Shown: positions 14,716-52,640, counted from the first letter of the stretch. The stretch is DNA of 64,000 nt from Polyangium spumosum (GCF_009649845.1 NZ_WJIE01000009.1:96685-160684), one strand, 5' to 3'. A program made the numbers and translations. The notes: generated from the letters alone by a model not told the origin.

Positions 14716-14789
14716 ACGAGATCGTGCTGCCCCTGAAGGAAATCTCCGTCGCCGGCGTCTCTCCCGCACCCCAACAACGGAGGTGCTCG

Positions 14790-15456: not shown

Positions 15457-15957
15457 ATGGCCTCCTCCAGGCACCGTCCGGGCGGGACGACGAGCAGGGC
15501 GCGATTCATCGTGGCCCTCGCCTCGTGCCTTGCCCTCTCGAGCCTCGGCTGCTCCGCGGGCCCCCCGCCGACGCGTTTTCTCGTCGAGGTCGCCATCACC
15601 GCCAGGGCGAACCGCAATTCGCCCGTCCCCATGACCCTCGTCGCGGTCCAGGAGCCGAAGCTCTTCGACCAGATCGTCAAGCTCACCGCCAAGCAGTGGT
15701 ACGACCAGCGCGAGCAGATGCGCCGGGATTATCCGAGCGGCACCGCCTTCACCGAGTGGGATTGGGAGTTCGTCCCCGGCCAGTCGCCCCCGCCCGTGGT
15801 CGTCGAGGTCGACGGCAAGGCCGTCGGCGCCGTCATCTTTGCCAATTATCGCTCGCCCGGCGATCATCGCTTCCGGATCGGCCCGCAGCGCCGCATGCGC
15901 GTCGACCTCGGTGACGATGATCTCGTCGTGAGCCCCCTCGATGCTCCGGAGGAATGA
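15457..15957 (+). CDS. tssJ: type VI secretion lipoprotein TssJ
   Basis: 166 aa. Lipobox (LSSLGCS). Size and internal pattern (ARANRNSPVPMTLVAVQEPKLFDQ...RFRIGPQRRMRVDL) match TssJ/SciN. First gene of the T6SS operon; 4-nt overlap with tssK. Confidence 0.8.
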   Translation: MASSRHRPGGTTSRARFIVALASCLALSSLGCSAGPPPTRFLVEVAITARANRNSPVPMTLVAVQEPKLFDQIVKLTAKQWYDQREQMRRDYPSGTAFTEWDWEFVPGQSPPPVVVEVDGKAVGAVIFANYRSPGDHRFRIGPQRRMRVDLGDDDLVVSPLDAPEE

Positions 15958-23883: not shown

Positions 23884-25386
23884 ATGCCGGAGACGAGCAG
23901 CGCGAAACAACACATCGACACGAGCGCGGATGGCGCGGCGATCATCGATCAGATCCTCGCCGAGGGCGCGATGGTCCGGGGGGACAACCCCGCCCAGAAG
24001 CAACACGCCCGCGACATCGTCGGGGAGTTCTGCCAGCAGATCCTCGATGAGCGGGATCCTGCGGACAAGCAGCGGGCCATCGACCTCGGCGCGGTCGCGG
24101 CCATTCAGGATCGCATCAACGAGATCGACGAGATCATCGGCAAGCAGCTCGACGTGATCCTGCACGCGGCCGAGTTCCAGTCGCTCGAGGCGCGCTGGCG
24201 GGGGCTGCACTACCTCGTCATGAACACGGAGACGAGCACGCGGCTCAAGATTCGCGTGATGAACGTCCGCAAGGACGAGCTCCGCAAGGATTTCGAGTCG
24301 GCGCCCGACTTCGATCGCAGCGCGCTCTTCAAGAAGGTCTACGAGGAGGAGTACGGCACCTTCGGCGGCGCGCCGTATGGCCTGCTCCTCGGCGACTACG
24401 AGTTCGACGGATCGAGCCCGGACGTCGGCCTCTTGACCGAGCTTTCGAAGGTCGCGGCGGCGGCGCACGCGCCCTTCATCTCGGCGGCGAGCCCGTTCCT
24501 CTTCGACATGGAGAACTTCGGGCAGATCGGCGTGCCCGGCGATCTCGCCAAGCTCTTCGAGAGCACGCAGCTCATCAAGTGGCGCGAGTTCCGCGAGAGC
24601 GAGGACAGCCGTTACGTCGGCCTCGTGCTCCCGCATGTGCTCATGCGCCTCCCGTACGGCCCGAAGGGCGTGCCCGTGGACGGCTTCATGTACGAGGAGA
24701 ACGTCGGCGCCGAGGACAAGAACTTCCTCTGGGGCAACGCGGCGTACGCGCTCGGCCAGCGGATCACGAACGCGTTCGCGCATTATGGCTGGTGCGCGGC
24801 GATCCGCGGCGTCGAGGGCGGCGGCCTCGTCGAGAACCTCCCGGTGCACGTCTTCAAGACGAGCGACGGCGACCTCGCGGTGAAGACGCCGACCGAGGTG
24901 GCGATCACCGATCGCCGCGAGAACGAGCTCTCCGAGCTCGGGTTCATCGGGCTCTGCTATCGCAAGAACAGCGGCCAGGCTGCGTTCTTCGGCGGCGCGA
25001 CCGCGAACAAGCCCAAGGTGTACAACCTGCCCTCGGCGACGGCGAACGCGCGTCTGTCGGCGCAGCTCCCGTACATCATGGCGACGAGCCGGTTCGCCCA
25101 TTACATCAAGGTCATGATGCGCGACAAGATCGGCAGCTTCATGACCAAGGACAACGTGTCGTCGTACCTCAACAACTGGATCGCGGACTACGTGCTCCTC
25201 AACGACGACGCGGGTCAGGACACGAAGGCGCGGCTGCCTCTTCGTGAGGCGCGGATCGACGTCACCGACGTTCCGGGCAAGCCGGGCGCGTACCGCGCCG
25301 TGGTCTTCCTGAAGCCGCACTTCCAGCTCAACGAGCTCACGGTCTCGATGCGCCTCGTGGCGGATCTTCCGCCTCCTGCAGCGTGA
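23884..25386 (+). CDS. tssC: type VI secretion sheath large subunit TssC (VipB)
   Basis: 500 aa; conserved TssC stretches (FQSLEARWRGLHYLV, GAPYGLLLGDYEFD, LPHVLMRLPYG). Confidence 0.95.
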   Translation: MPETSSAKQHIDTSADGAAIIDQILAEGAMVRGDNPAQKQHARDIVGEFCQQILDERDPADKQRAIDLGAVAAIQDRINEIDEIIGKQLDVILHAAEFQSLEARWRGLHYLVMNTETSTRLKIRVMNVRKDELRKDFESAPDFDRSALFKKVYEEEYGTFGGAPYGLLLGDYEFDGSSPDVGLLTELSKVAAAAHAPFISAASPFLFDMENFGQIGVPGDLAKLFESTQLIKWREFRESEDSRYVGLVLPHVLMRLPYGPKGVPVDGFMYEENVGAEDKNFLWGNAAYALGQRITNAFAHYGWCAAIRGVEGGGLVENLPVHVFKTSDGDLAVKTPTEVAITDRRENELSELGFIGLCYRKNSGQAAFFGGATANKPKVYNLPSATANARLSAQLPYIMATSRFAHYIKVMMRDKIGSFMTKDNVSSYLNNWIADYVLLNDDAGQDTKARLPLREARIDVTDVPGKPGAYRAVVFLKPHFQLNELTVSMRLVADLPPPAA

Positions 25387-26023: not shown

Positions 26024-26500
26024 ATGGCGAAGGCGTGGGGATCCACGAGCGCGGGCAGGGTTCCCCTGTTCGATCGGCTGATCGACGAGAACCCTGCTCA
26101 AAAACAGGAAGTGGTCCCCTATTGCACCCTCGACCGAGACGGGCTGCGCGCCTCCGTGGCCCGCGAGCTCGGTCGAATCCTCGGCACCCGCAGCCCCATC
26201 TCCGGCGACGAGGCCCTCTCCCGACCGCGCACGACCATCGATTACGGGTTGCCCGACCTCGAGCTCGGCGGCCGTGCGCTCGTGCCGGAGGAGCTGCGCC
26301 GCCTCGTGCGCCTCGTGCAGAAGACGATCGAGGCGTACGAGCCGAGGCTCCAGAACGTACGCGTGGAGATCAAGCGACGCGAGGACGCGCCGCCGCACGC
26401 GCGGCTCGTCGTCGCGCTCACGGCGACGCTCGTCACGGACGAGGTGCGTGAGCCCCTCTCGTTCGAGGCGCCGCTCGAAGCGAGCTCGGGGGCCGCATGA
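26024..26500 (+). CDS. tssE: type VI secretion baseplate protein TssE (gp25-like)
   Basis: 158 aa; gp25/GPW-like pattern (LFDRLIDENP...TIDYGLPDL). 4-nt overlap with tssF. Confidence 0.85.
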   Translation: MAKAWGSTSAGRVPLFDRLIDENPAQKQEVVPYCTLDRDGLRASVARELGRILGTRSPISGDEALSRPRTTIDYGLPDLELGGRALVPEELRRLVRLVQKTIEAYEPRLQNVRVEIKRREDAPPHARLVVALTATLVTDEVREPLSFEAPLEASSGAA

Positions 26501-28305
26501 GCCGGGGTGATCCCGATCGGGAGATGCTCGAGCTCTACGCGCGCGAGCTCGTGTATCTGCGCGAGCGCGGCGCCGAGTTCGCCAAGGACTATCCGAAGAT
26601 CGCGGCGCGCCTCGGCACGTCGAGCCAGGCCTCGGCCGATCCACACGTCGAGCGCCTCGTCGAGGCCTTCGCGTTCCTCTCGGCGCGCCTCACGCGCGAC
26701 ATGGAGGCCGAGCTGCCGATTTACACGACGTCGCTGCTCGGCGTCCTCTATCCGCAGCTCGTTTGCCCCGTCCCTGCGATGGCGATCGCCGCCTTCGAGG
26801 TCGACCCGAAGGAGCAGAAGCTCGGCTCCGGCTACACGGTCGACAAGCACACGCCGCTCTTCGCGGCCTCGCAGAGCGGGCCCGTTTGTCATTTTCGCAC
26901 CGCGTATCCGGTCACGCTCTGGCCGATCGAGATCACGCACGCGGGCATGGTCCCGCCCGAGAACCTCGACCTGCCCGGCTGGCTCGTCGCGAACGCCGCG
27001 GCCGTGCTCGAGATCGAGCTCTCGACCGGCGGGGTCCCGCTCGACAAACTCGGCATGCGCTCGCTGCGCTTCCACGTCGCGGGCGGGGGCATGGGCGCGG
27101 CGCGGCTCTACGACCTCGTCGCCGCGCACGCCGTCGGCGTCCTCGTGGTCGGGGACAACCCTTCGCAGGACTGGGCCCACGGCAAGATCCGCCCCGTCGG
27201 CTTCGAGGCGAGCGAGGACGTCCTGCCGTATCCGCCCCACGCGCACCGCGGCCATCGCCTCGTGCAGGAGTATTTCGCGTTCCCGGAGAAGTTTCATTTC
27301 TTCGACATCGAGCTCCCGAAGCTCCCGCCCCGGAAGAACGCGAAGATCCTCGTCCTCTTCGACCAGAAGCCGCCGGCCGGCGCCGCGGTCCGCAAGACGA
27401 CGCTCTCGCTCGGCTGCACCCCGATCATCAACCTCTTCCCGCGCAGCGCCGAGCCCATCCGCGTCGATCACACCCGGCCCGAGTATCGCCTCGTCGCCGA
27501 CGCGCGCCGCGAGCGGACCACCGAGGTCCACTCGATCACGCGTGTGGCCGCCACCGCGCCCGGCGAGCCCAAGCAGATCGATTACGCGTCCTTTTTCTCC
27601 TTCGTGCACCACCAGAAGGGCGAGCGGCCGCGCGCCTTCTGGCACGCGCGCCGTGTCGCCACGGGCCGCAAGGACCTGCCGGGCACCGACCTCTGGCTCA
27701 CCTTCGTCGACACCGACTTCAAGCTCGCGCGTCCGCCCTCGGAGACCGTCTACGCGGGCGTCCTCTGCACGAACCGCGACCTCGCGAACGAGATCGCCAA
27801 GGACACCCAGCTCTCCCCCGAGCGCCCCATCCCGGCCCGGAAAATCGTTTGTCTCACGAAACCGACGCCCCAGCGCGCGGCGCCCATGGGCGGCGAGGCC
27901 CTCTGGCGGCTCGTCTCGAACCTCTCGCAGAACCACCTCTCGATCACCGACGGCAAGGCCGGCGTCTCCGCGCTCCGCGAGATCCTGCGCGCGTACGTCT
28001 TCGGCGATTCGCCCGACGCCGAGCGCCAGATCGACGCGCTTCTCGACATCTCGAGCCGCGTCGTCACGCGCCGCCTCGGCAGCGACGCGTGGCGCGGCTA
28101 CTGTCGTGGCCTCGAGATCACGCTCACGCTCGCGGACGAGCAGTTCGCCGGATCGAGCCCGGTCCTTTTGGCCTCGGTGCTGAGCCGCTTCTTCGCCTTG
28201 CAGGCGCACATCAATGCGTTCACCGAGCTCGTCCTGAAGCGCGCCTCGCGCGCGGAGGTCTGGAAGCGATGGCCGCCCACGGCTGGCGAAAGAGCCCTTC
28301 TGTAG
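26497..28305 (+). CDS. tssF: type VI secretion baseplate protein TssF
   Basis: 602 aa; N-terminus LELYARELVYLRERGAEFAKDYPKIAARLG is the TssF signature. Confidence 0.9.
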   Translation: MSRGDPDREMLELYARELVYLRERGAEFAKDYPKIAARLGTSSQASADPHVERLVEAFAFLSARLTRDMEAELPIYTTSLLGVLYPQLVCPVPAMAIAAFEVDPKEQKLGSGYTVDKHTPLFAASQSGPVCHFRTAYPVTLWPIEITHAGMVPPENLDLPGWLVANAAAVLEIELSTGGVPLDKLGMRSLRFHVAGGGMGAARLYDLVAAHAVGVLVVGDNPSQDWAHGKIRPVGFEASEDVLPYPPHAHRGHRLVQEYFAFPEKFHFFDIELPKLPPRKNAKILVLFDQKPPAGAAVRKTTLSLGCTPIINLFPRSAEPIRVDHTRPEYRLVADARRERTTEVHSITRVAATAPGEPKQIDYASFFSFVHHQKGERPRAFWHARRVATGRKDLPGTDLWLTFVDTDFKLARPPSETVYAGVLCTNRDLANEIAKDTQLSPERPIPARKIVCLTKPTPQRAAPMGGEALWRLVSNLSQNHLSITDGKAGVSALREILRAYVFGDSPDAERQIDALLDISSRVVTRRLGSDAWRGYCRGLEITLTLADEQFAGSSPVLLASVLSRFFALQAHINAFTELVLKRASRAEVWKRWPPTAGERALL

Positions 28306-29324
28306 AGGCCTGGCTCTTCGACGAGGGGCACGCCTTCGATTTTTATCAGGCCGTCTCCCTCCTCGAGCGCTGGCGCGAGGGCGACGCCGTCCCCGTCGGC
28401 GAGGGCTCCGATCCTTCACGCGAGGCCGTGCGGTTCTCGTCGAGCATCGCGCTCTCCTTCCCCGAGACCGACGTCGCGAAGATTCGCCCGCCGCACCGCG
28501 AGGGCCAGCCGGCGAAGATGCTCGTCAACTTCCTCGGCCTCGGCGGCGCCCTCGGCCCTCTGCCGCCGCCCATCGTCGAGTCGATCTTCATGCGCGCCGT
28601 CCGCGGCGACACCGCGGCGCGTGATTTCCTCGACATCTTCAATCACCGCCTCGTCTCCTTCGCTTATCGGATCCGCAAGGGCCACCGCGTCGGCCTCGGC
28701 GCCTCCTCGCCCGAGAAAGACGCCGCGGCGCGGCACCTCTTTTCGCTGCTCGGGCTCGGCTTTCGCGCGCTCGAAGGCCGCCTCGCGGTCCAGGATCGCG
28801 CCCTGCTCGAGCACGCGGCGAACCTCTCGAGCGAGAGGCGCTCGCTCGAGGGCCTCGTGGCCATCCTCCGCCGCCATTTTGGCGTCTCGATCGAGCCCAT
28901 CCCGCTCACCGGGGCGTTTCATCCCATCGAGGACGGTGATCGTACTGCGATCGGCCGCTCCGGCCAGAACCGCGCCCTCGGCCGCGACGCCTGCCTCGGG
29001 GGGCGCTTCTGGGATCAGGAGTCGACCTTCGACCTGCGCATCGGGCCGATGAAGCTCGACGAATTCCTTCGATTCCTCCCGGGCGGCGACGCGCTCGCGC
29101 CGCTCTGCTCCCTCGTGCGGTTTTATGCTGGCGCCCGATTCCACTTCGGCCTCGTCCTCGTGCTCGCCGAGGGCGAGGCGCCGCGGGCGGCGCTTGGTCG
29201 CCCTGGGCGCGCGCTCCTCGGCCAGATCGCGTGGCTCGGCGACGTGGGCAAGGTGGGCAGGAGGGACCGCGAGGTGCGTTTGTCCCGTGCGGCCATTCGG
29301 AAGGGGCTCGGGGAGGCTGGCTGA
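28269..29324 (+). CDS. tssG: type VI secretion baseplate protein TssG
   Basis: ATG at 28269, in frame with the 3' part of tracked ORF 26763..29324 (MAAHGWRKSPSVEAWLFDEGHAFDFYQAVSLLER...). TssG-like; overlaps tssF by 37 nt. The 5' 1.5 kb of that tracked ORF is an off-frame artefact inside tssF. Confidence 0.85.
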   Translation: MAAHGWRKSPSVEAWLFDEGHAFDFYQAVSLLERWREGDAVPVGEGSDPSREAVRFSSSIALSFPETDVAKIRPPHREGQPAKMLVNFLGLGGALGPLPPPIVESIFMRAVRGDTAARDFLDIFNHRLVSFAYRIRKGHRVGLGASSPEKDAAARHLFSLLGLGFRALEGRLAVQDRALLEHAANLSSERRSLEGLVAILRRHFGVSIEPIPLTGAFHPIEDGDRTAIGRSGQNRALGRDACLGGRFWDQESTFDLRIGPMKLDEFLRFLPGGDALAPLCSLVRFYAGARFHFGLVLVLAEGEAPRAALGRPGRALLGQIAWLGDVGKVGRRDREVRLSRAAIRKGLGEAG

Positions 29325-29377
29325 GGCTTGTCAACCGAGCGTGTGCCGGGATATCGTTCGACTGAGGCTTTTTTCGC

Positions 29378-32300
29378 ATGACGACCGAAGACCAGAGCCA
29401 GGGCGCCACGGAGAGCATTCCGAGCAAGCTCGGGAAGTTCGCGCAGGAGCAGATCGACAAGGCCGAGGTCACGGTCACGAAGGGCGTCTCCACCGTCCGC
29501 GACTCCACGAACGGGATCATCGGCAAGGCCGAAGAGCAGATCCTCAAGCTCAACAAGGCCCTCTACGAGACCAAAAACGGCATCTCCTCCGGCATCGACA
29601 CGGCGATCAAGGAGACCGAAGGGCAGCTCAAGGGCATCACGCCCGAGCTCAAGAAGATGGGCGAGGACGCCATCGCGTCCGCGAAGTCGAAGCTCGACGG
29701 GCTCGTCGGCGAGGTCGAGGGCAAACTCGAATCGCAGAAGGACTCGCTCGTCACGACGGCGAAGGATCAGATCCAGAGCGCGGCCGACGCGGCGAAGGGC
29801 AAGATCGACGAGATCGGAGAGCTCGGCGAGGAGCAGGCGACGAAGGTCCTCGACGCGGTGAAGGCGCAGGCCGACACGGTCGAGCAGAAGCTCGGGGACA
29901 TCGCGGGCGAGATCGACGGCAAGATCGAGGCGATCGGCGACGACGTCCGGAGCAAGTTCGAGGCGGCGATCGCGAAGGTTCCCGATCACGACGGCGCCAA
30001 GGCCGAGATGTCGGCGAACATCGACGCCGTCGTGGGCGAGCTACGCGAGGCCACGAAGGGCTCGATCGATCAGGCGCGCGAGACGCTGAAGAGCCTCGTC
30101 CAGCAGACCGACGACACGATCAAGCAGACGATCGGCGACGTGCGGCGCGCGATCGGCGAGGTCCCGACCCGCATCAACCAGTGCGCGCAGGACATCCTCG
30201 CGAAGGTCGACGACGCCATCCAGAAGACGATCGACGAGATCGCGAACCTCGCGCGTGGTCTCGTCGCGCGCACGGCGGAGCTGCTCAACGAGGCGCTGCT
30301 CACGATCACGAGCACGATCGACAAACTGCTCGCCGACGGCTTCGCGCTCGTGCGGGGGATCAAGGCCGACCTCGATCGGCTGCTCGACCAACTGCTCGAG
30401 CAGATCCGCGACCTGACGCTCGGCACGCTCGAGGACGTGCGCAAGGCGGCGAACGAGCTTCTCGGCACGTTCGAGGCCGAATGCAAGAAGATCCTCCAGA
30501 CGATGGAGGACTCGGTCATCGTCTCGGTCGAGGAGCTCGGCGGCAAGATGAACGCCTCGATCAAGGCGCTCCAGGCCGACTTGAACCTCGAGGCGGACAA
30601 GATCGTCCGGGACCTCGTGGCGGAGGGCGCGAAGGGGCACGACGACGCGCTCGCGGACTTCATCAGCGCCGGTTATGAAGAGGACACCTCGGTCATCCCC
30701 AAGATCCGGGCCAAGGGCGAGGCTGCGATCAAGCAGATCGAGGCCAAGACCAAGGCGCAAGGGGAGAAGCTGATCAAGGACTTCGAGCTGCAAGCGACGC
30801 TCTTGAAGCCGAAGATCCAGGCGCAGGGCATCAAGGTCATCGCGCAGATCGCCGCGCTCGGACCGAAGCTCGCGATGCAGGCCATGCAGATCGCGACGAG
30901 CATCGCGTCGTCGATCAAGGACAAGGGCGAGGCGGTCAAGAAGACGTTCGAGGAGCTGCAATCGACGCTCGTCGACGCGATCACGAAGAAGATCCCCGAT
31001 TACCTCGAGAGCTGCAAGAAGCAGATCAAGGCCGCGGCGGACGCGCTCGTCGAGGCGGGCAAGACGTTCTACGAGAAGACGCTCGCCGACATCATGGGGG
31101 CGATCAAGGCGGCGGAGCAGCGGTTCAAGCAGCTCGCCTCCGAGATGAAGGACCTCATCGAGACGCAGGTGCTCGAGCTCGTGGCCTCCATTCGCCGGAC
31201 GGTGGAGACCTCGATCCAGCGCTTCAAGGACCTCGGCGCGGCGTTCGAGGACAAGACGAACGCGCTCGTGAACGACATCCCGGCGCGGATCCTCAAGCTG
31301 GAGCAGGTCGCGCGGACGGCGGTCGAGAGTCAGATCGCGCTCGCGCAGGGGCTCGCGAATGCGACGAAGGAGGACATCCTCCTCAAGGCGCGGACGGCGC
31401 TCGCGGAGATCAAGAAGGCGGCGTACGGGGTCACGGCGGGCATTTCGGGTGATCTGGGCGCATTGAAGGGGACGCTCGCCGCGATCGTGCCGGCGGGCGG
31501 GGGGCTCGACGCGGCGGGGGCGATCAACCTCGTGGTCTCGGGCGGGCTCGAGCAGATGGTCACGTCGGCGGCGAACGCGGCGTCCGCGGCGGTGACGGCG
31601 GGCGTGAACGCGGCCGAGGCCGTGAACAACGCGGCGGAGCAGGCGGCGGCCGCGATGGGGGCGGCGGGGTTCGAGGGCGCCTCGAAGGCATTGACGGACG
31701 TGCTGAACCAGCAAATGGGGGAGGTGCGGACGGAGGGCGAGAAGGCGAAAAACGTCATCGCCGCGGCGAAGGAGAAGACGATGGCGGTCGCCAAGGAGGC
31801 GAACGACGCGTGCTCCGAGGCGGCGGCGGCGGCGCAGGCCGAGGCGGCGAAGGTCGTGGAGGCCGCGCAATCGACGGGCGACGCGATCAAGGCCTCGGCG
31901 GACAACCTGACGAAGAGCCTCGAGAAGGCGAAGGAGATCGTCAAGGACGCCGGCAAGACCGCGATGCAATCGATGAAGGAGGCCCAGGACGCGCGCAAGG
32001 GCGGCGACGGCGCGCAGGCCGGCGCGGGGGCACAAGCCGGGGCGGCGGCAGGCGCGGACGCGGGTGGGGCGGACGCGGCGGCGGACGCGGGTGGCGCGGA
32101 GGCGGCGGCGGACGCGGGCGGGGCGGAGGCGGCGGCGGATGCGGGTGGCGCGGAAGCTCCGGCGGCGGAGGCGGCGGCTCCCGAGGCAGCGGCTCCCGAG
32201 GCCAAGGCAGAGGTTCCGGGCGCCAAGGCAGAGGTTCCGGGCGCCAAGGCAGAGGTTCCGGGCGCCTCGAAACCGGAAGCGGGCGCCGATGTAGCGGCGC

Positions 32301-33091
32301 CGGCCGTCCCGAAGGCGCCTCCGGGCGCCAAGGTGCCGGAAGCGGCCGCCAAGGTACCGGAAGCGGGCGCCAAGGTACCGGAAGCGGGCGCCAAGGTACC
32401 GGAAGCGGGCGCCGGTGTAGCGGCGCCGGCCGTCCCGAAGGCGCCTCCGGCCGCCAAGGTACCGGAAGCGGCTGCCAAGGTACCGGAAGCGGGCGCCAAG
32501 GTACCGGAAGCGGGCGCCGGTGTAGCGGCGCCGGCCGTCCCGAAGGCGCCTCCGGCTGCCAAGGTACCGGAAGCGGCCGCCAAGGTACCGGAAGCGGCTG
32601 CCAAGGTACCGGAAGCGGCTGCCAAGGTACCGGAAGCGGGCGCCAAGGTACCGGAAGCGGCTGCCAAGGTACCGGAAGCGGGCGCCGATGTAGCGGCGCC
32701 GGCCGTCCCGAAGGCGCCTCCGGCCGCCAAGGTACCGGAAGCGGGCGCCAAGGTACCGGAAGCAGCCGCCCCTGCGGCGGCGCCGGCCGTCCCGAAGGCG
32801 CCTCCGGCCGCCAAGGTGCCGGAAGCGGCCGCCAAGGCAGCGGTCCCGGGCGCCCCGGCGGCCGCCCCGAAGGCCCCCGAACCCCCGGCCGCGCCGGCCG
32901 ACGCCGCGCTCTTCGCCCCGAAGGCCGCGCCCGCGGCGCCCAAACCCCCGGCCGCGCCCGCGCCGCCCGCCGCTCCTTCCATGCCCGGCGCCGCGAAACC
33001 TCCCGCCGCGCCCGCCGCGCCCGCCGCCCCCAAGCCCGTCCTCCCCGGCGGCGGCAAATGGCCCGGCCCCGGCGGCAAGCCCGGCCCCTGA
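29378..33091 (+). CDS. large (1237 aa) Lys/Glu/Ala/Ile-rich all-helical protein of unknown function with C-terminal AKVPEA(A/G) tandem repeats and a Pro/Ala-rich tail; T6SS-operon-associated
   Basis: Starts 54 nt after the tssG stop on the same strand. About 900 aa of amphipathic-helix/coiled-coil-like sequence. Then about 25 perfect 8-aa repeats. Composition is atypical for this genome (high Lys/Ile). Confidence 0.75.
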   Translation: MTTEDQSQGATESIPSKLGKFAQEQIDKAEVTVTKGVSTVRDSTNGIIGKAEEQILKLNKALYETKNGISSGIDTAIKETEGQLKGITPELKKMGEDAIASAKSKLDGLVGEVEGKLESQKDSLVTTAKDQIQSAADAAKGKIDEIGELGEEQATKVLDAVKAQADTVEQKLGDIAGEIDGKIEAIGDDVRSKFEAAIAKVPDHDGAKAEMSANIDAVVGELREATKGSIDQARETLKSLVQQTDDTIKQTIGDVRRAIGEVPTRINQCAQDILAKVDDAIQKTIDEIANLARGLVARTAELLNEALLTITSTIDKLLADGFALVRGIKADLDRLLDQLLEQIRDLTLGTLEDVRKAANELLGTFEAECKKILQTMEDSVIVSVEELGGKMNASIKALQADLNLEADKIVRDLVAEGAKGHDDALADFISAGYEEDTSVIPKIRAKGEAAIKQIEAKTKAQGEKLIKDFELQATLLKPKIQAQGIKVIAQIAALGPKLAMQAMQIATSIASSIKDKGEAVKKTFEELQSTLVDAITKKIPDYLESCKKQIKAAADALVEAGKTFYEKTLADIMGAIKAAEQRFKQLASEMKDLIETQVLELVASIRRTVETSIQRFKDLGAAFEDKTNALVNDIPARILKLEQVARTAVESQIALAQGLANATKEDILLKARTALAEIKKAAYGVTAGISGDLGALKGTLAAIVPAGGGLDAAGAINLVVSGGLEQMVTSAANAASAAVTAGVNAAEAVNNAAEQAAAAMGAAGFEGASKALTDVLNQQMGEVRTEGEKAKNVIAAAKEKTMAVAKEANDACSEAAAAAQAEAAKVVEAAQSTGDAIKASADNLTKSLEKAKEIVKDAGKTAMQSMKEAQDARKGGDGAQAGAGAQAGAAAGADAGGADAAADAGGAEAAADAGGAEAAADAGGAEAPAAEAAAPEAAAPEAKAEVPGAKAEVPGAKAEVPGASKPEAGADVAAPAVPKAPPGAKVPEAAAKVPEAGAKVPEAGAKVPEAGAGVAAPAVPKAPPAAKVPEAAAKVPEAGAKVPEAGAGVAAPAVPKAPPAAKVPEAAAKVPEAAAKVPEAAAKVPEAGAKVPEAAAKVPEAGADVAAPAVPKAPPAAKVPEAGAKVPEAAAPAAAPAVPKAPPAAKVPEAAAKAAVPGAPAAAPKAPEPPAAPADAALFAPKAAPAAPKPPAAPAPPAAPSMPGAAKPPAAPAAPAAPKPVLPGGGKWPGPGGKPGP
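32200..32840 (+). repeat. intragenic perfect 24-bp tandem repeats (GCCAAGGTACCGGAAGCGGGCGCC...; about 25 copies, encoding AKVPEAGA/AKVPEAAA)
   Basis: Visible directly in the DNA; interspersed GVAAPAVPKAPPAAKVPEA variants. Likely copy-number variable. Confidence 0.85.
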
Positions 33092-33174: not shown

Positions 33175-33501
33175 GTGACCTCGAAGCTGGATCGTCACGC
33201 GCAGCAGCTCAGCGCGCTTGGCCATCCCGTTCGCCTTCAGATCCTGCGCTTCGTCGTGCAGGGGGGCGAAGGGGGGACGTCGGCGGGCGAGATCCAGGCG
33301 CATGTCGATCTGCCGGCGTCGACCTTGAGCCATCACCTGAAGCGGCTCGTCGAGGCGGGCCTGTTCACGACCCGCCTCGAAGGCACATTTCACTACTACG
33401 CCGCCGATTACGCGGCGCTCCTGGCCCTCACGGGTTACCTCTGGGAAGACTGCTGCAATCGTGGCAAAGGCGGCAAAGTCGTGAAGAGCGGCTGCTGCTG
33501 A
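33175..33501 (+). CDS. ArsR/SmtB-family metalloregulatory transcriptional repressor
   Basis: HTH region (LSALGHPVRLQILRFV...ASTLSHHLKRLVEAGL). Cys-rich C-terminus (CCNRG...SGCC), consistent with metal sensing. Confidence 0.85.
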   Translation: MTSKLDRHAQQLSALGHPVRLQILRFVVQGGEGGTSAGEIQAHVDLPASTLSHHLKRLVEAGLFTTRLEGTFHYYAADYAALLALTGYLWEDCCNRGKGGKVVKSGCC

Positions 33502-33566
33502 ACGGCCGCTTTTTTTGGGCCCCAAGGTTCGAGTTTTTTGGAAGCAAGAAGAAAAGGAGACTCCCC

Positions 33567-34070
33567 ATGAACGTCCTCAAGCCCCACGTGTCCCTGAACG
33601 TCACCAACATCGAGCAATCCGTGGCCTTTTACGAGAAGGCGTTCGGCGTCGCGGCGACGAAGCGGCGGGCCGGATATGCGAAATTCGATCTGCAGGTCCC
33701 CTCGCTCAACCTGACGATGCAGGAGGCCCCTCGCACGGGGATCAACGTCAGCCATTTCGGCGTGCAGGTCGCGAGCACCGAGGATGTCCTCGAAGCCAAG
33801 GCCCGCTTCGAGGCCCAGGGGCTGAAGACCCTCACGGAGGAGGAGACGTCTTGCTGCTACGCCGTGCAGGACAAGGTGTGGGTCGAGGATCCGGACGGCA
33901 ATTCGTGGGAGGTGTTCGTCGTGAAGGCGGACGCCGACGTGATGGGGACGTCCACGGCGCTGAACAAAGACGCGAGCGCGTGCTGCACGCCCGTCGGCCT
34001 CTCGGAGAAAAGCGAAGTGAAGAGCGAGGTCAAGCCGACGGCGTCGTCCTGCTGCGGCCCGAAGACCTGA
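33567..34070 (+). CDS. ArsI/CadI-family metalloenzyme (glyoxalase/VOC fold; C-As lyase or Cd-induced type)
   Basis: Strong resemblance to ArsI/CadI (LNVTNIEQSVAFYEKAFG...YAKF...SLNLTMQE...HFGVQVASTEDV...CCYAVQDKVWVEDPDGNSWEVF) with a C-terminal Cys-pair tail. Confidence 0.85.
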   Translation: MNVLKPHVSLNVTNIEQSVAFYEKAFGVAATKRRAGYAKFDLQVPSLNLTMQEAPRTGINVSHFGVQVASTEDVLEAKARFEAQGLKTLTEEETSCCYAVQDKVWVEDPDGNSWEVFVVKADADVMGTSTALNKDASACCTPVGLSEKSEVKSEVKPTASSCCGPKT

Positions 34071-34073
34071 GGC

Positions 34074-34463
34074 TCAAGGCACCTGCACGGTGACCTGCCC
34101 CGGGAACGAGATCTGAATCACCCCGCCCCACATACACATCAGCTTCGAGCTGTTGTTCAGCGCGGGCATGTTCGCCAGTAACACCGTCGGAGCACCCACG
34201 ATCCACGGCGCCGGCGTGTTCGGGATACACGGCATCGGCGTGAGCACCCCCATCGCCGCCGCCGTCGCCGCGGCCACCGTCGGGTTCGCCAGGCTCTGAC
34301 ACATCCCGAACGGCAGCACGTTCAGCATCGGCTTGCCGTCCATGATGTTCGCGAGTGGCCCCGGGGCGGTCATCGTCCGGTTTGCGGGCAGCACCGTGAG
34401 CGAGCTCGGCGCCACGCCGAAGCTGCATTGCATCATCGCCCCCATGCATACGTGCTGGCCCAT
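34074..34463 (-). CDS. DUF4280-family protein (PAAR-like T6SS spike-tip candidate)
   Basis: Internal Met start at 34463 (MGQHVCMGAMMQCSFGVAPSSLTVLPANR...TPMPCIPNTPAPWIVGAPTVLLANMPALNNSSKLMCMWGGVIQI), characteristic of DUF4280. Its start codon abuts the stop of the upstream MORN gene (ATG...TGA junction). The tracked ORF's first 27 codons are rejected. Confidence 0.8.
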   Translation of the reverse strand: MGQHVCMGAMMQCSFGVAPSSLTVLPANRTMTAPGPLANIMDGKPMLNVLPFGMCQSLANPTVAAATAAAMGVLTPMPCIPNTPAPWIVGAPTVLLANMPALNNSSKLMCMWGGVIQISFPGQVTVQVP

Positions 34464-34465
34464 CG

Positions 34466-35221
34466 TCAGCCTCCCGCGAGTTTGTTCACGATCTTGTCGA
34501 AGAAGGACGTCTCCTTCTCCTCGGACTTCGACTTCGGGAGGCACTTGTCGTCGTACTCGACCTCGCCGCGCTTCTCGCCGTCCTTGTACGTCGCCTTCGC
34601 CTTGAGCTTGCCGTTCACGTCGTAGCTGAAGGTGTCGCCTTGTTTCTTGCCGTCGTCGTAGGTGGCCCGCTCGCGCACCTCGCCGTCCGGGAAGTATTCG
34701 ATCACCTCCCCGTGCAGCTTGTCCGCCTTGTAGTGCGCTTTCCGCAGCGTATTGCCCTTGCCGTCGAGGAAAAGCGACTCCCCCTCGAGCTTGCCGTTCT
34801 TGTAGAACGAACGTACGACCTCGCCCCCCTGCTCGTCGAACGATTGAAACGGTCCGTTTTGCTTGCCCTTCTCGAAGAGCAACAACGTCCGCAGGCGCCC
34901 GTCCTCGTAGAGCCGCGTCGGCCCGTGTTGCTCGCCCTTCACGAACGTGACGACCTGCGAGAGCTTGCCGTTCTCGTCGAAGAGCTTCGTCTCGCCGTGC
35001 AGGAGGCCGTCCTCGAACGACGAGCGCTCGACCTCGCGCCCCTCCGGGTCGTACGTGATCGACAAACCGTGGAGTTTTCCCTTCTGATAACTCGCCCGGT
35101 GCGCGATCTGTTTTTCGGTCTCCCCGTACTGGACGAACTCGCCGTGCAGCGCGCCGTCTTCCATCTGGAACCGGGTGAGCAGCTTGCCGTTCTCGTCGCG
35201 CTCTTCGTGGTCGGTCGGCAT
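34466..35221 (-). CDS. MORN-variant (YwqK-like) repeat protein
   Basis: About 10 repeats of YxDGKLxGExxxYDENGKL, typical of the MORN_2/YwqK family. Between vgrG and the DUF4280 gene on the same strand. Confidence 0.8.
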   Translation of the reverse strand: MPTDHEERDENGKLLTRFQMEDGALHGEFVQYGETEKQIAHRASYQKGKLHGLSITYDPEGREVERSSFEDGLLHGETKLFDENGKLSQVVTFVKGEQHGPTRLYEDGRLRTLLLFEKGKQNGPFQSFDEQGGEVVRSFYKNGKLEGESLFLDGKGNTLRKAHYKADKLHGEVIEYFPDGEVRERATYDDGKKQGDTFSYDVNGKLKAKATYKDGEKRGEVEYDDKCLPKSKSEEKETSFFDKIVNKLAGG

Positions 35222-35234
35222 GAATGGCCTCGCC

Positions 35235-37235
35235 TCAGTTGATCTTCACCATGCCGCCCTTCAAGGTCAGCATGCCGCCGCCCTCCACGGCGGCCTGCGC
35301 GCCGCCCTTCGCCTTCAGCGCGATCGCGCCCTCGAGCGTCATGTTCGTCCCGCCCTTGGCCTTGAAATCGGTGCCGGCCTTGAGCGTCATCCCCGTCCCG
35401 CTCTCGGCCTTGAAGTCCGTGCCCGCCTTCATCGTGAAGGCCTGCTTGGCCTTGATCGTCACGCTCTTCGCCTCGATCACGAGGTCGCCGTCGACCTTGA
35501 TCGTGTAGTTCTTCGTCACCTTGTAATCGAGGTTCGCCTTGTTCGTGTGCGCCTCGTCCTTCGTGACCTCGAGCGTGCGTTTGCCCTTCACGGCGTGGAG
35601 CTCGTCGCCCTTGTCCACCTTGATCGTGCGGTTGCCCTTCGTGACGGTGAGCGTCTCGTCGCCCTCCTCGATCGTCACCTTCCGCTCGTTCTTGACGTTC
35701 ATCGCGACATCGTGGAGGACCTTCACGGTCCAGTCGTTCTCCACCTCGAAGAGCATGTCCTTCTGGGCGTGCGCGTAGAACTCCTCGTTATCCTTCTTGT
35801 CGTCGAAGCGCAGCTCGTTGCCCGCGTCGCCCTCCTTCGAGGAGCGGCTCAGGATCGTGCTCTTCGTCTGCATGTCCGGCAAACCGTAGGGCACCGTCTG
35901 CTCGGCGTTGTACACCGAGCCCGTCACGAGCGGCCGATCCGGGTCGCCGTCGATGAAGCTCACGACGACCTCCTGCCCGATCCGCGGCAAGAACCACGTG
36001 CCCCAGCTCTTGCCCGCCCAGGCCTGCACCACGCGCACGAAGCACGAGCTCTTGTCGTCCTTCGCGCCCTTGCGATCCCAGTGGAACTGGACCTTGATGC
36101 GCCCGTATTCGTCCGTCCACTGCTCCTCGCCGCTCTTGCCCACGACGACGGCCGTCTGCGTGCCCGGGATCGCCGGCTTCGGCGTGATACGCGGCGCGCG
36201 GTACGAGGTCTTCTTCGGGAACGCCTCGAAGGTATTCGTGTACCCCTCCTGGCTCGCCCGGTGCGAGACCGAGAGCAGCACCCAGTCGGTGTTCGCGTCG
36301 TCCCGATCATGCTCGTCGAGCTTGAACGCGTGCCCCGCCGTGAACGCGCGGCACGTGGACGTGCCCGCCAGACGCACGGCCCGCGCCTCCTCGGCCTCGA
36401 TGCGCAGCTTCGCCCGCGCGTCCCCCGGGCTCTTCTCGACGTGACCGCCCGGGTATTCGAAGAGCTCGAGCTTGCCCGATTCGCCCGCGACCTCCGCGAG
36501 GAGCGACGTGCTCGGCATCTCGAAGTTGTAATCCGTCGCCGCGTATTTGCCCGCGACGATCTCCTCCTCGAGCGTGCACTCGAGGACGGCGTCCTCGTCC
36601 GTCGACGTGGAGAACTGCTCGACGAAGCGCGCCTTGTCGAGGTTCGGGCACGCCGCGGCCGACGCGCTGTCGTCGGAGAGCACCATGACGTGCTTGCCGT
36701 CCTCGTGCGCGAAATAATAGTGGATGCCCTCGTCCTCCATGAGGCGCGAGACGAAATCGAGCGCGGTCTCCTGGTACTGCACGCAGTACGGGCGCGGCGT
36801 GTAGGAGCCCTTCAGCGAATCCTTGAAGTGCTCGCCCGACGAGAACCCGAGCTCCTGGAAGAGCTCCTTCAGGATGTCGGGCACGCTCTTCTCCTGGAAG
36901 ATGCGGCAATCGCTGGTCTTGCCGAGCAGCCATAACCACGGGTGCAGCTCCGCCCGGTAGCGCGTCTGCTTGCCGACCCGCCCCGCCTGGACGAACCGCG
37001 TGCAGATCCCGTGGATGAAGCGCGGCTTCTCCTTCGCCATGCCCCGCACGGTCAAGGTCACGCCCTTGCCGACGATCGCCTTGAAGTCGAGGGCCTTCTC
37101 CGGCGAGACGAGCTCGAGCTCGAAGCGGAACAGCCCCGAGATCCGCTCCTCCCCGTGCAGATCGACGAGGAGCACGGCGTCGGGTCCGAACGGCGTCGCG
37201 ATGCCGATGCCAAGTGTGCCCTGCGGATAAGGCAT
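35235..37235 (-). CDS. vgrG: VgrG (TssI) spike protein; no C-terminal effector extension
   Basis: 666 aa. gp27/gp5-like VgrG core (LFRFELELVS..., SVSHRASQEGYTNTFEAFP, WAGKSWGTWFLPRIGQEVVVSFIDGDPDRPLVTGSVYNAEQ). C-terminal gp5 beta-helix repeats (TLEVTKDEAHT...VTKNYTIKVDGDLVIEA...). Confidence 0.9.
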   Translation of the reverse strand: MPYPQGTLGIGIATPFGPDAVLLVDLHGEERISGLFRFELELVSPEKALDFKAIVGKGVTLTVRGMAKEKPRFIHGICTRFVQAGRVGKQTRYRAELHPWLWLLGKTSDCRIFQEKSVPDILKELFQELGFSSGEHFKDSLKGSYTPRPYCVQYQETALDFVSRLMEDEGIHYYFAHEDGKHVMVLSDDSASAAACPNLDKARFVEQFSTSTDEDAVLECTLEEEIVAGKYAATDYNFEMPSTSLLAEVAGESGKLELFEYPGGHVEKSPGDARAKLRIEAEEARAVRLAGTSTCRAFTAGHAFKLDEHDRDDANTDWVLLSVSHRASQEGYTNTFEAFPKKTSYRAPRITPKPAIPGTQTAVVVGKSGEEQWTDEYGRIKVQFHWDRKGAKDDKSSCFVRVVQAWAGKSWGTWFLPRIGQEVVVSFIDGDPDRPLVTGSVYNAEQTVPYGLPDMQTKSTILSRSSKEGDAGNELRFDDKKDNEEFYAHAQKDMLFEVENDWTVKVLHDVAMNVKNERKVTIEEGDETLTVTKGNRTIKVDKGDELHAVKGKRTLEVTKDEAHTNKANLDYKVTKNYTIKVDGDLVIEAKSVTIKAKQAFTMKAGTDFKAESGTGMTLKAGTDFKAKGGTNMTLEGAIALKAKGGAQAAVEGGGMLTLKGGMVKIN

Positions 37236-38205: not shown

Positions 38206-38988
38206 TCAACGCACGACGCGTAACGCGCCGTCGACCTTCGCCACGTAGACGGGGATCTGGAGCTGCGAGCCGTCCTTGTCCGGCACCGTCTGGAGCAGCG
38301 GGCGCTTCGGCTTTCGCATGAGCTCCCAGATCCGGCCCTCGCACATCGAGACCGGCAGGATGTCCGTCGCCCCGAACGCGAGGTCCATCGGGCCCGGCAG
38401 CAGCTTGCCCTGCACGAACTCCACGAAGTCGTCGCGCATGCGCGCCTCCGTCTCGTAATACGCTTGCCCGAAATCGCGTATCTTCGGCGCGAACTCCTTC
38501 ACGAGCCCCACCACGTCCGACGCGGCGAAGAGGTCCCGCAGGCGCGTCGCGTAGGCGAGCAGCGGCTCCGGATCCTCGATCGGCTCCGCTTCCCGGAGGA
38601 GCTCGGGGAACGCGGGGCCCTCGTTGTCGAATTCGAACGAGAGCTGCAAAGGGATCGCCGGGACCTGCCCGGCGAGCGCTTTTTGTACGTCGATGGAGAG
38701 CACGACGTCGCCGGCCTCGTCCGGCGCCACGATGTCCCCGGCCTTGTACGCCGACACCGAGCCGGTGATGTCGATGTCGAGCGGCGAGCTCATCCCTTTC
38801 CGCGTGATCGTCGGGAGCGCCTGGATGCCGAGCACGTTCCCCTTGCCGACGAGGAGCTGGTTCACCGGCGGCGCCACGCTGATCGGCGCCCGCGCGTCCA
38901 CGGCGAGGAGCTGAAAGCCGTTCAGCGTGACCCGCGCGAGGCAGGCGCGCAGCGACAGGTTCAGGTGGAAGATCGGTTTGTCCTGCAT
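38206..38988 (-). CDS. hypothetical protein (260 aa), immediately downstream of the giant toxin gene; candidate immunity/adaptor
   Basis: Balanced composition; 4-nt gap to the upstream gene's stop. No signal peptide or known domain recognised. Confidence 0.6.
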   Translation of the reverse strand: MQDKPIFHLNLSLRACLARVTLNGFQLLAVDARAPISVAPPVNQLLVGKGNVLGIQALPTITRKGMSSPLDIDITGSVSAYKAGDIVAPDEAGDVVLSIDVQKALAGQVPAIPLQLSFEFDNEGPAFPELLREAEPIEDPEPLLAYATRLRDLFAASDVVGLVKEFAPKIRDFGQAYYETEARMRDDFVEFVQGKLLPGPMDLAFGATDILPVSMCEGRIWELMRKPKRPLLQTVPDKDGSQLQIPVYVAKVDGALRVVR

Positions 38989-44017: not shown

Positions 44018-44058
44018 GATGCCACCGGACGTGGGATGATACACGTCGGCGCGGCGGA

Positions 44059-45603
44059 TCACTCCATCAAAAGACCCATCCGCGCGAAGCGCAGGAGCTT
44101 CTGCTCGGTGATCTCGGCGAAGACGTCGGCCGACACGCAAGGCGCGCCGTTCATCTCCACCGACACCTCGCCGCGCCGCGCCTCCTCGAGCGCGGCCTCC
44201 GTGAGCGCCGCGGCGTCACGTGTCCCGTCCATCCGCGCGAGGATCACCCGATCGAAGCTGTCGACCTGCACGCCCTCGTGCAGGAGCGTCGTGCAAAACG
44301 GGCTGCCCACGCTCGCCTGGTAACGCGCGAACGAAAAGGCCCGCGGGCGCTCGCTCACCCCACGCGCGACGGGCTTCGGCGAGGCCCAGAGCCGGAGCGC
44401 GTTTTTCGTGTACAACCCGAGCAGGTTCCGCGCGAGCCGCGCCCGCGCCTCCCCCTCGAACGCGGCGAGCCCGAGCCTCTCGCCCGCCTCCCAGGCGAGC
44501 GCGTCGAACGGCAAGCCCCCCGGCGCGCGCGCCGCGAGCGCGACGAGCGCGGCCTTGAGCGTCGCCTGATCCGTGGAGATCGTGCCGCCCGGCCCGAGGA
44601 ACGTCTCCTCGACGCCCTCGCCGAGGTTCGGGCTCGTCGCGCCCGGCGTGAGCGGCGAGGCGACGACGAGCGGAAAGAGGCGATCGACCGAGACACGGCG
44701 CGAGATCGCCACGTCGTCGCGGCAGAGGACGGCGCGGCGAAAGCAGCGGAGCTCGAGCAGGTCGAGGGATTGCTGCATGGCCACGACGTCCCCGCCCGAC
44801 CGCGCGCGTACGGCCTCCGCGGCGGCGGGGCCGAGGCGCTCGGGGAGGACGAGCGGGACGTGCGCGTCGGTGACGAAGGCGAGCCCGGCGTCCTGCATGT
44901 CGCGGGCGAAGTCGGAGAAATACTCGGCGCGGTTGTACGCGACGAGGTGCTCGCCGAGCAGGTAATCGTCCGCGAGCTGGCCGAGGGTCTGGAGCTCGCT
45001 CGCGAGCCAGGCGCGCGCCGGATCGGCGGCGAGGGTCTCGGCGGCGCCGAGGAACTGCAAAAAAGCGCGCGCCTTCACGACGCGCTCGGCGGCCGATCCT
45101 TCCGCGCCGACCTCGCGGCGGAGCATGTCGCGCAAGGCGCCGCGCAGGTGCCAGCCGGGGAGGGTATTGAAGCTGATGTAGGCGAGCCCGTGGGGCGCGA
45201 GGTGCCTGCGGACGAGGCGTCGCAGGGCCGCGCGCGCGTCGTCGGGGATCCACGAGTACACGCCGTGACAGACGATGTAATCGAAGGAGGCGGGCTCGTC
45301 CTCGAATTCGCGGACGTCGGCGAGGTGGAGGGCGAGGTTCTGGAGCCGCGCGCCCTCGGCGTGCTTGCGGGCGACGGCGAGCGAGTCTTCGGCGCGGTCG
45401 AGGGCGACGAAGCGGCTCTCGGGGAAGGCGGCGGCCATGGGCAGGACGTTGCCGCCGGTGGCGCAGCCGATCTCGAGGAGGCGGCAGCGAGCGGGCGGAG
45501 CGGGCCGGAGGCCGAAGAGGGCGCCGACCGCGCCGAGGTGGTCGGGGTGTGTCTCGGCGAAGGGCAGGGCCTCGTAGAAATAGTCCTCGTTCGGGGGGGC
45601 CAA
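44059..45603 (-). CDS. class I SAM-dependent methyltransferase with C-terminal methyltransferase-regulatory-like domain (start uncertain, possibly TTG at 45603)
   Basis: C-terminal 510 aa of tracked ORF 44059..46536. SAM-binding motif region (RLLEIGCATGGNVLPMAAAFPESRFVALD...FDYIVCHGVYSWIP). The 5' part of the tracked ORF is an off-frame read through a repeat region. Confidence 0.7.
   Translation of the reverse strand: MAPPNEDYFYEALPFAETHPDHLGAVGALFGLRPAPPARCRLLEIGCATGGNVLPMAAAFPESRFVALDRAEDSLAVARKHAEGARLQNLALHLADVREFEDEPASFDYIVCHGVYSWIPDDARAALRRLVRRHLAPHGLAYISFNTLPGWHLRGALRDMLRREVGAEGSAAERVVKARAFLQFLGAAETLAADPARAWLASELQTLGQLADDYLLGEHLVAYNRAEYFSDFARDMQDAGLAFVTDAHVPLVLPERLGPAAAEAVRARSGGDVVAMQQSLDLLELRCFRRAVLCRDDVAISRRVSVDRLFPLVVASPLTPGATSPNLGEGVEETFLGPGGTISTDQATLKAALVALAARAPGGLPFDALAWEAGERLGLAAFEGEARARLARNLLGLYTKNALRLWASPKPVARGVSERPRAFSFARYQASVGSPFCTTLLHEGVQVDSFDRVILARMDGTRDAAALTEAALEEARRGEVSVEMNGAPCVSADVFAEITEQKLLRFARMGLLME

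Positions 45604-46697: not shown

Positions 46698-52640
<5,943 letters not shown>

Follow-up and report, generated by a model that had tools for sequence, protein, structure and literature searches.

A hendecad-helix rod protein at the baseplate end of a Polyangium type VI secretion cluster, possibly ejected with the tube and spike

Within a 64,000-nucleotide stretch of the Polyangium spumosum genome (GCF_009649845.1 NZ_WJIE01000009.1:96685-160684; hereafter the window), we analyzed an open reading frame (ORF) of 1237 amino acids (aa) that starts with ATG just behind the baseplate gene tssG of a type VI secretion system (T6SS) cluster. Our best explanation, to which we assign a probability of about 0.35, is that its product is a lineage-specific, non-enzymatic, T6SS-associated rod that is tape-measure-like in physical terms and is probably ejected together with the tube and spike. 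The protein consists of a long helical rod followed by a low-complexity tail, with the following parts.

29378..33091, plus strand: the whole ORF, 1237 aa, without a signal peptide and without a transmembrane segment
29378..32002, plus strand: helical rod domain, residues 1–875, which defines the family (AlphaFold2 helices and 11/3 hendecad periodicity)
29417..29971, plus strand: helix 1, residues 14–198 (AlphaFold2; constant hydrophobic phase)
29990..30667, plus strand: helix 2, residues 205–430 (AlphaFold2 and hydropathy phase)
30668..30730, plus strand: family signature AGYEEDTSVIPKIRAKGEAAI, residues 431–451, at the break between helices 2 and 3 (conservation, and an AlphaFold2 break at 431–438)
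30692..31408, plus strand: helix 3, residues 439–677 (AlphaFold2 and hydropathy phase)
31409..31540, plus strand: Gly/Ala-rich, weakly hydrophobic linker, residues 678–721 (predicted local distance difference test score, pLDDT, of 23–40; no secondary structure)
31541..31999, plus strand: helix 4, residues 722–874, Ala-rich, ending in the conserved V.DAGK...M.EA (AlphaFold2 and alignment)
32003..33088, plus strand: low-complexity tail, residues 876–1237 (A 39, P 21, K 10, G 9, V 9 and E 8%; no Arg; net charge −3)
32327..32830, plus strand: array of 16 perfect copies of the heptad AKVPEA[A/G] with VPKAPP spacers (repeat count)

The reading frame itself is well supported. The GC content at third codon positions (GC3) is 0.90 over the whole gene and 0.95 over the first 875 codons, as expected of a host-like frame in a window of ~70% GC, and the ORFs that overlap it in other frames are the usual high-GC artefacts. 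Its ATG is backed by conservation: the orthologues have MTT..QSQGATESIPSKLGKF in common, and similarity ends just upstream of the start codon.

AlphaFold2, run with a 19-sequence family alignment (pLDDT 62; predicted template-modelling score 0.36), placed four helices of 153–239 residues each in the rod, separated by the sequence KVPDHDG, by the conserved signature and by the Gly-rich linker, so that an earlier description of about 900 residues as all-helical and amphipathic holds. Fourier analysis of rod hydropathy gave a single sharp peak at 3.66–3.68 residues (11/3), with a power of 230–370 against a 95th percentile of at most 90 in shuffled sequences; power at 3.5 residues was essentially nil in the three longest helices. 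The hydrophobic phase stays constant over stretches of ~170 residues, and the hydrophobic stripe is narrow, occupying 3–4 of 11 positions, mainly with I, L and V. The rod is thus made of hendecad helices, that is, straight rods that pack without supercoiling as bundles or hairpins. The best-conserved stretches are residues 1–100, 301–600 and 851–875, a pattern that would fit a bundle or hairpin folded back on itself with the signature at its conserved end; the whole may take the shape of a ~30-nm four-helix bundle, a ~60-nm hairpin or a ~130-nm extended rod. The linker is the hydropathy maximum of the protein, yet the top 19-residue value (1.47) stays below transmembrane level, and the N-terminus is polar. 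Export, if any, would therefore need to be non-classical.

The protein belongs to a small unnamed family whose members come from Polyangiaceae, from marine Myxococcota and from archaea-like contigs of marine origin. Nothing in Pfam or NCBIfam matched the protein above threshold, an exact-sequence look-up returned no record, and a word-indexed protein search gave nothing for the sequence itself and one fragment for the family profile, a failure probably due to low-complexity words. When 1.84 billion representatives were searched exhaustively with HMMER, 36 matches emerged; motif scans of JGI metagenome contigs returned no relatives, and tblastn against plasmids no match. The full-length relatives are 23–28% identical to the P. 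spumosum protein and align nearly without gaps (phmmer E 9e-79 to 1e-44). The family plan comprises a rod of ~860–875 residues, a GY.ED.S.IP.IR..G signature whose residues G, Y, E, I, I and G are invariant in ten members from bacteria and archaea, the end motif V..AG...K...M.EA and a disordered low-complexity repeat tail; the P. spumosum protein has the signature at its helix 2/3 break, the end motif and the repeat tail. One group of relatives comprises P0007–P0010 and P0013, of which the clusters P0010/P0040 and P0013 are labelled Myxococcales at source. In this group, P0007 and P0010 (locus L015) lack a signal peptide, and their rod contains an insertion, an OmpA/Pal-like peptidoglycan-binding domain; the P0010/P0040 cluster bears the source name 'OmpA family protein'. 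Wall-directed modules occur inside phage tape-measure proteins too.

The other group (P0001, P0003, P0004 and P0006) comes from marine metagenome contigs (Tara and other ocean samples) that look archaeal, with archaellins, a TFIIS-type zinc ribbon, a GPN-loop GTPase and a geranylgeranyl reductase. Aligned with archaeal P0003 across 860 aa, the P. spumosum protein shows 26% identity and four one-residue gaps, none of them in the first 689 residues, and nearly all gaps relative to the archaeal homologues are located in the linker. An alignment of this length with so few gaps indicates an unusually strong constraint on length. This is accordingly a new and very rare family, common to Myxococcota and marine archaea-like organisms, with a rod length essentially fixed at 26% identity, and it is absent from Pfam, NCBIfam, the PDB and, as far as true homologues are concerned, PHROGs.

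In every archaeal-type locus, the gene immediately before the rod homologue, in the same orientation, encodes a conserved protein of 470–570 aa, whose copies are 48–58% identical to one another.

L009 7027-12139; L010 8427-13441; L011 8215-13360; also L016-L018: two-gene module, hub-like protein then rod homologue on the same strand, on marine archaea-like contigs

The module is embedded among housekeeping genes, with no sheath or tube genes near it. The partner has no Pfam match and no PDB sequence match; it matches the PHROG 'baseplate hub' (E 1.5e-5). Its AlphaFold2 model was poor (pLDDT 41), with the N-terminal ~135 residues alone usable, and the five top PDB neighbors of that part are phage tail-tip or baseplate chains (8rk3_O, 6tba_7A, 9occ_F, 8eon_E and 8iyk_L; probability 0.98–1.0), one of them a 232-residue lambda tail-tip chain equal in length to gpL. 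Phage tape-measure genes, among them those of Arawn and HHU-22, likewise adjoin tail-tip or hub genes. A relationship of the partner to the VgrG of the window was considered and dropped, as profile comparison showed none, and neither the window nor any of the bacterial loci has a homologue of the partner.

In P. spumosum, the rod gene lies in a T6SS cluster with the order probable tssJ, then tssK-L-M-A-B-C-hcp-E-F-G. The features that bear on its position are the following.

15457..15957, plus strand: probable tssJ, 166 aa, directly 5' of tssK, with no Pfam match and with a signal peptide and lipobox (LSSLGC)
26024..29324, plus strand: tssE-tssF-tssG baseplate wedge genes, directly upstream of the rod gene (Pfam GPW_gp25; T6SS_TssF, E 2e-196; T6SS_TssG, E 3e-87)
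29328..29357, plus strand: promoter-like block TTGTCA-N18-TATCGT in the gap between tssG and the rod gene (consensus scan, one site against 0.2 expected; putative function)
33175-34070, plus strand: arsR-family regulator and glyoxalase-fold gene, between the rod gene and the DUF4280 gene
34074..37235, minus strand: DUF4280 (PAAR-like)-MORN-VgrG module, convergent to the rod gene (Pfam matches)

Pfam assigned TssK, TssL, TssA, TssB, Hcp, TssE, TssF and TssG upstream of the rod gene on the same strand; tssM (18045-22112) and tssC (23884-25386) were assigned by size and position, without a family scan. The ORF at 15457-15957 probably encodes the TssJ lipoprotein of the membrane complex. In all, eight core components, VgrG and a PAAR-like protein were assigned by Pfam to ORFs of the window other than the rod gene, which itself matched no core T6SS model (TssA–M, ClpV, Hcp, VgrG or PAAR) in Pfam or NCBIfam. 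Both the start of the gene 54 nucleotides (nt) past the stop of tssG (28305..29324) on the same strand and its distinctness from every canonical Tss protein, as proposed in an initial annotation of this DNA, stand. ClpV/TssH, the AAA+ sheath recycler, was not found among the scanned ORFs of the window, and no unscanned window ORF has the size of ClpV, although the cluster otherwise appears to have a full set of core genes; in some clusters, such as that of Myxococcus, the slot behind tssG that the rod gene fills here is taken by clpV. The cluster's TssL is of a short form, in which Pfam sees the DotU domain only (within residues 51–227 of 250), and its TssA is short as well (359 aa), which implies that a partner or accessory factor may exist.

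We scanned one genome per species for orthologues and obtained eight loci, all from Polyangium or Polyangiaceae, with 75–89% identity to the P. spumosum protein over residues 1–875. Adjacency to the T6SS is found in seven Polyangium-type loci, and the order from tssM through tssG to the rod gene is kept in L001–L006. Within Polyangium, the rod is 86–89% identical, TssG 84–91% and TssA 78–87%; the rod protein thus evolves at the same rate as these T6SS components. Identities of at least 89% for tssM and at least 92% for tssC in other Polyangium clusters show conserved synteny only. All three loci that read past the tail (the window, L003 of P. jinanense and L020) have the rod gene between tssG and the DUF4280-MORN-VgrG module, so the view that it sits within the T6SS cluster is upheld. 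In L003 and L020 it directly adjoins that module with nothing in between; because the arsR-glyoxalase pair is absent from both, the pair is a recent insertion, and the ancestral arrangement had the rod gene inside the cluster. L020, a noisy long-read contig from a Polyangium relative, reads rod gene-DUF4280-MORN-VgrG-orf325-orf260-effector; at 8223-8442 the last ~73 codons of tssG are left, tssK-tssF are gone, and ABC-transporter and nucleoside-metabolism genes come before. Either this contig has lost the T6SS core operon by deletion or it is misassembled. Plausibly, then, the rod protein is tied to the T6SS in Polyangium alone, the tie being circumstantial.

The composition of the protein points in the same direction. 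Residues 1–900 contain A 17.9, K 9.8, E 8.6, L 8.6, I 7.6, D 7.1 and T 6.2%, in agreement with an earlier description as rich in K, E, A, I, D and T; Pro makes up 1.1% of the rod, and the whole protein has K 9.8% against R 1.9%. The share of lysine among basic residues, K/(K+R), sorts the proteins of the window as follows.

Rod protein: 0.79 in the rod domain, 1.00 in the tail
Staying inside the cell (TssK, L, M, A, E, F and G; AraC regulator; methyltransferase): 0.05–0.35
Hcp 0.79 and VgrG 0.65, both known to leave the cell
Effector candidate of 1715 aa 0.65, FG-GAP protein 0.62 and MopE-repeat protein 0.63, all likely to be ejected or exported

The richness in Lys does set the rod protein apart from TssK/L/M/A/E/F/G (0.15–0.35), but not from Hcp, VgrG, the 1715-aa protein or the MORN protein (0.68), with which it is shared. 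As to its cause, a recent horizontal origin of the Lys and Ile richness was tested against codon usage and rejected: GC3 (0.95) and the AAG fraction (0.95) are both host-like. The bias is thus better ascribed to selection than to foreign origin, so that, of the two explanations previously offered, functional constraint is retained and a distinct origin is not. It points, weakly and circumstantially, to an exported or ejected fate.

More generally, the exported proteins of the window (Hcp, VgrG, the effector candidate, the FG-GAP and MopE-repeat proteins and orf354) have ratios of 0.6–0.8 and the cytoplasmic ones 0.05–0.35 at the same GC3; replacement of Arg by Lys in extracellular proteins may be a proteome-wide rule in this high-GC organism.

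The nearest known parallels include the tape-measure proteins of phages and of contractile injection systems other than the classical T6SS. In loci of extracellular contractile injection systems (eCIS), afp14, which encodes the tape measure, comes after afp9-afp12, the wedge genes of gp25/gp6/gp7 type (Table 1 of PMC6899500), and the position of the rod gene behind tssE-F-G mirrors this arrangement and is in that sense analogous. Afp14/Pvc14 of eCIS and the gp29-like proteins of T6SS-iv share with the rod protein a gene position downstream of wedge genes and are presumed to form a thin rod inside the tube; no sequence match between them and the rod protein was found, and the window has no Afp16/gp3-like terminator gene. 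The tape-measure proteins of Butyrivibrio phage Arawn (QHJ73555.1) and Staphylococcus phage HHU-22 (XRA13969.1) are, like the rod protein, very long and almost purely α-helical, with 400–550-residue segments of 3.66–3.67 periodicity. Their genes adjoin tail-tip or hub genes, as do the archaeal homologues and, loosely, the Polyangium rod gene behind its baseplate genes; the remaining family members have no tail genes within 10 kb. Unlike phage tape-measure loci, the rod gene is accompanied neither by chaperone G/GT genes nor by a tail terminator gene. Lambda gpH gave no hendecad signal, so this style is not universal among tape-measure proteins.

In the genus Polyangium the family has settled in the T6SS cluster, and we hypothesize that its product there would be expelled along with the tube of Hcp and the spike of VgrG, either lying in the tube lumen or fastened to spike or baseplate. 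In physical terms it would resemble the hendecad core of a phage tape-measure protein, being only a few nm thick, rigid and constrained in length. We infer the interaction with the T6SS, the ejection, the place in the machine and any ruler role alike; a hint of the last is the invariance of rod length across the family. A more far-reaching version, which we regard as improbable, would have a classical T6SS, of the T6SS-i-like kind with a membrane complex, possess its first known rod of tape-measure type or of the tube lumen, drawn from an ancient length-invariant rod family whose marine archaeal members are paired with a phage-tail-tip protein, and either setting the length of sheath and tube or fired into target cells as a structural passenger. 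A rod gene at the place where eCIS loci keep their tape-measure gene is a concrete candidate for testing the view that classical T6SSs have no tape measure, in a setting, the myxobacteria, whose T6SSs are little studied.

Direct similarity to tape-measure proteins is deceptive in this case. Five PHROG 'tail length tape measure' families match the protein (E 6e-14 to 5e-5), and in a tblastn search of 50,697 phage records (2.3 Gb) tape-measure genes were the sole matches. We nevertheless rejected homology, as the reversed sequence matches as well or better. Since the reversed sequence matches and full or 30-residue block shuffles find nothing in PHROGs, what the proteins have in common is a long-range periodic style and not descent; the match in style is still physically informative.

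Several results weigh against a tape-measure-like T6SS rod. The reversed sequence hits the same PHROG families at E 5e-16 and a phage tape-measure gene in tblastn at E 2e-6, no Pfam or NCBIfam tape-measure model matches the protein, and motif scans of IMG/VR returned no viral relatives. Foldseek of the rod model, a check proposed at the outset, returned from the PDB and viral structures generic coiled coils, SMC/MukB arms and chemoreceptors, with template-modelling scores of ~0.1. The 360-residue disordered repeat tail is atypical of tape-measure proteins. According to PMC6450956 and PMC8632748, classical T6SSs have no tape-measure protein and their length is set by cell width, and afp14 homologues are reported absent from T6SS i-iii (PMC6899500); a tape-measure-like rod is for this reason unexpected here. 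Outside the genus the genomic tie dissolves: the L008 orthologue (75% identity), the closest one outside Polyangium whose upstream region was examined, lies behind genes for DUF2330, cytochrome bd oxidase and a MopE-like protein and not behind a T6SS, no T6SS genes were seen near any distant relative examined, and neither T6SS nor sheath/tube genes occur within 10 kb in the P0008, P0009 and P0010 loci or in the archaeal loci. The Lys bias also extends to a glyoxalase and other proteins and is therefore a weak indicator.

Transcription adds to these points. The block CTTGTCAAC...GGGATATCGTTC is kept in the window, L003, L005 and L006 (four of the seven loci) and not in L001, L002 and L004, and the gap between tssG and the rod gene ranges from 54 to ~500 nt across Polyangium loci. 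Together, the conserved promoter-like block and the variable gap suggest that the gene has its own transcription and is probably not simply appended to the operon, as the initial annotation had it. The same annotation had named a promoter of the gene's own, with expression independent of the T6SS, as an observation that would weaken the link to secretion, and the putative site in four of seven loci goes some way in that direction.

The earlier proposals for the function fared unevenly. Nothing found speaks directly for a giant effector: Pfam shows neither a toxin domain nor a known effector marker (the MIX and FIX motifs were not specifically searched), no immunity gene lies beside the rod gene, its downstream neighbor being arsR in the window and nothing in L003, and, contrary to the cargo-effector class, the gene is convergent with the vgrG module and not co-oriented with it. 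The idea of a new T6SS accessory component or cargo stays plausible; it gains from the conserved position in the cluster and loses from L008 and the distant relatives, which have no T6SS neighbors. Like the rod protein, the T6SS accessory proteins TsmA/TagA, TsmB/TagB, TagJ, TagL/N/P, TagF and Fha are encoded in the clusters without being core components, to judge from the relevant sections of a 2026 review (PMC13584744); unlike it, they bear domains (ImpA_N, OmpA or FHA), none of which they have in common with it. Those sections contain no comparable long helical protein.

The main rival to an ejected T6SS rod is a cytoplasmic or cell-envelope scaffold unrelated to secretion, a helical strut with an entropic, brush-like tail, whose adjacency to tssG would be accidental and kept by descent in one genus. 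We hold this to be only a little less probable than the ejected rod. Much of the above agrees with it: the family predates the adjacency and most of its members are not near T6SS genes, the gene has its own promoter-like block at a variable distance from tssG, L020 keeps it though tssK-tssF are lost and only ~73 codons of tssG are left, no T6SS domain or effector marker is detectable, and its structural neighbors are only SMC/MukB arms, chemoreceptors and similar rods. A scaffold of this kind leaves unexplained why seven Polyangium-type loci hold the gene at the tssG end, with the arrangement tssG-rod gene-vgrG module in three of the three loci readable past the tail, and why the Lys bias is that of ejected T6SS parts and not the Arg bias of the cytoplasmic proteins of the window. 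The independent archaeal pairing with a tail-tip-like protein also points to tail-type machines. An anchoring role is the least likely of the readings we considered: the rod and Pro/Ala/Lys-rich tail would serve as TolA/TonB-like spacers of an envelope-spanning tether that joins the T6SS or another envelope structure to the peptidoglycan or outer membrane. Pro-rich repeats resemble extended periplasmic spacers, and the tail is 21% Pro; the marine Myxococcota relatives have an OmpA/Pal-like peptidoglycan-binding domain; and the short TssL, with DotU only, means that a peptidoglycan anchor could come in trans, an arrangement put forward for TagL and TagN (PMC13584744). However, a signal peptide, a lipobox and a transmembrane anchor are all missing from the rod protein, the Polyangium version lacks the OmpA domain, and neither the sequence nor the charge of the tail is conserved in the family.

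The periodicity of the rod suits yet another function, that of an apolipoprotein/LEA/perilipin-like binder of lipid or membrane surfaces, which would coat and protect membranes or lipid bodies of the producer or be delivered as a membrane-perturbing T6SS effector. The 11/3 periodicity, strong in the rod, is a hallmark of lipid-surface-binding helices. ApoA-I, ApoA-IV, ApoE and apolipophorin-III share with the protein amphipathic helices of 11-residue repeat and a composition rich in K, E, A and L; PF01442 (Apolipoprotein A1/A4/E) scores 58.7 bits (E 8e-16) against a cutoff of 90 and PF07464 (ApoLp-III) 18.4 against 36.3; the family profile finds in the PDB only designed bundles and chains of apolipoprotein A-IV, A-I and apolipophorin-III; and the high content of Gly, Thr and Ala together with the moderate pLDDT fits conditional folding. 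The scores nevertheless lie below the Pfam cutoffs, and such matches are compositional. LEA_4 and phasin found no match in Pfam (E ≤ 0.01) or NCBIfam, so that of the resemblance to apolipoproteins, LEA proteins and phasins noted earlier the style survives, as the sub-threshold PF01442 match, and the family assignment does not. Unlike apolipoproteins, the protein is prokaryotic, lacks a signal peptide and the proline-punctuated 22-mers, and has unbroken helices of 150–240 residues; its narrow stripe of bulky I, L and V is that of bundle cores and not of broad lipid faces. The near-absence of indels over 860 residues is hard to explain by lipid binding, and an effector of this kind would have no adjoining immunity gene. 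We therefore consider lipid binding improbable, though less so than a tether. Should the link to the T6SS prove false, the protein would be an ordinary uncharacterized structural protein, and a caution against spurious annotation of hendecad proteins as 'tape measure' or 'apolipoprotein'.

The tail differs from the rod in its evolution. The repeat had been described as about 25 perfect AKVPEA(A/G) octapeptides; the unit in fact has seven residues and occurs in 16 perfect copies, accompanied by three AKAEVPG units and five VPKAPP spacers. In the DNA, a 21-bp unit in ~21 imperfect copies is nested in higher-order repeats of 84–126 bp. Five of the eight public Polyangium/Polyangiaceae contigs end inside this repeat, so copy number can be compared in a single genome: the 1225-aa orthologue of P. 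jinanense (L003), which has heptads of the types AKVAVPD and AAKVEAP and zero copies of AKVPEA against 16. The terminus KWPG..G.KP is similar in the two species. With different heptads and a similar end, the tail is a fast-evolving low-complexity spacer with a conserved end. An [IV]PE motif was examined as a conserved tail feature and discarded, being absent from P0006 and P0007 and present three times in P. jinanense against 16 in P. spumosum. The tail is acidic in the distant relatives measured (−18 to −167) and near neutral in Polyangium.

Beyond the vgrG module, several genes of the window deserve mention. On the far side of vgrG from the rod gene, with orf325 and orf260 in between, 38993-44140 (minus strand) encodes a Lys-rich 1715-aa protein with an N-terminal pesticin/phage-lysozyme-like domain (E 1.7e-9); the adjoining 260-aa ORF at 38206-38988 (minus strand) has no family match. 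The former is likely a muramidase effector of the T6SS and the latter an immunity candidate; both are kept in L020 and partly in L003. Upstream of the cluster, between a divergent AraC regulator and the T6SS genes, 14331-15287 (plus strand) is a 318-aa ORF, possibly not a genuine gene, whose first half consists of a degenerate repeat rich in Ser, Pro and Leu (ILPQADLILPP, SSSRR). Further downstream, 46698-52700 (minus strand) encodes a protein of 2000 aa that contains 15 putative metal-binding motifs of the MopE type. Genes for MopE-like proteins also adjoin the rod-family gene in L008 and in L012/L013, probably by coincidence.

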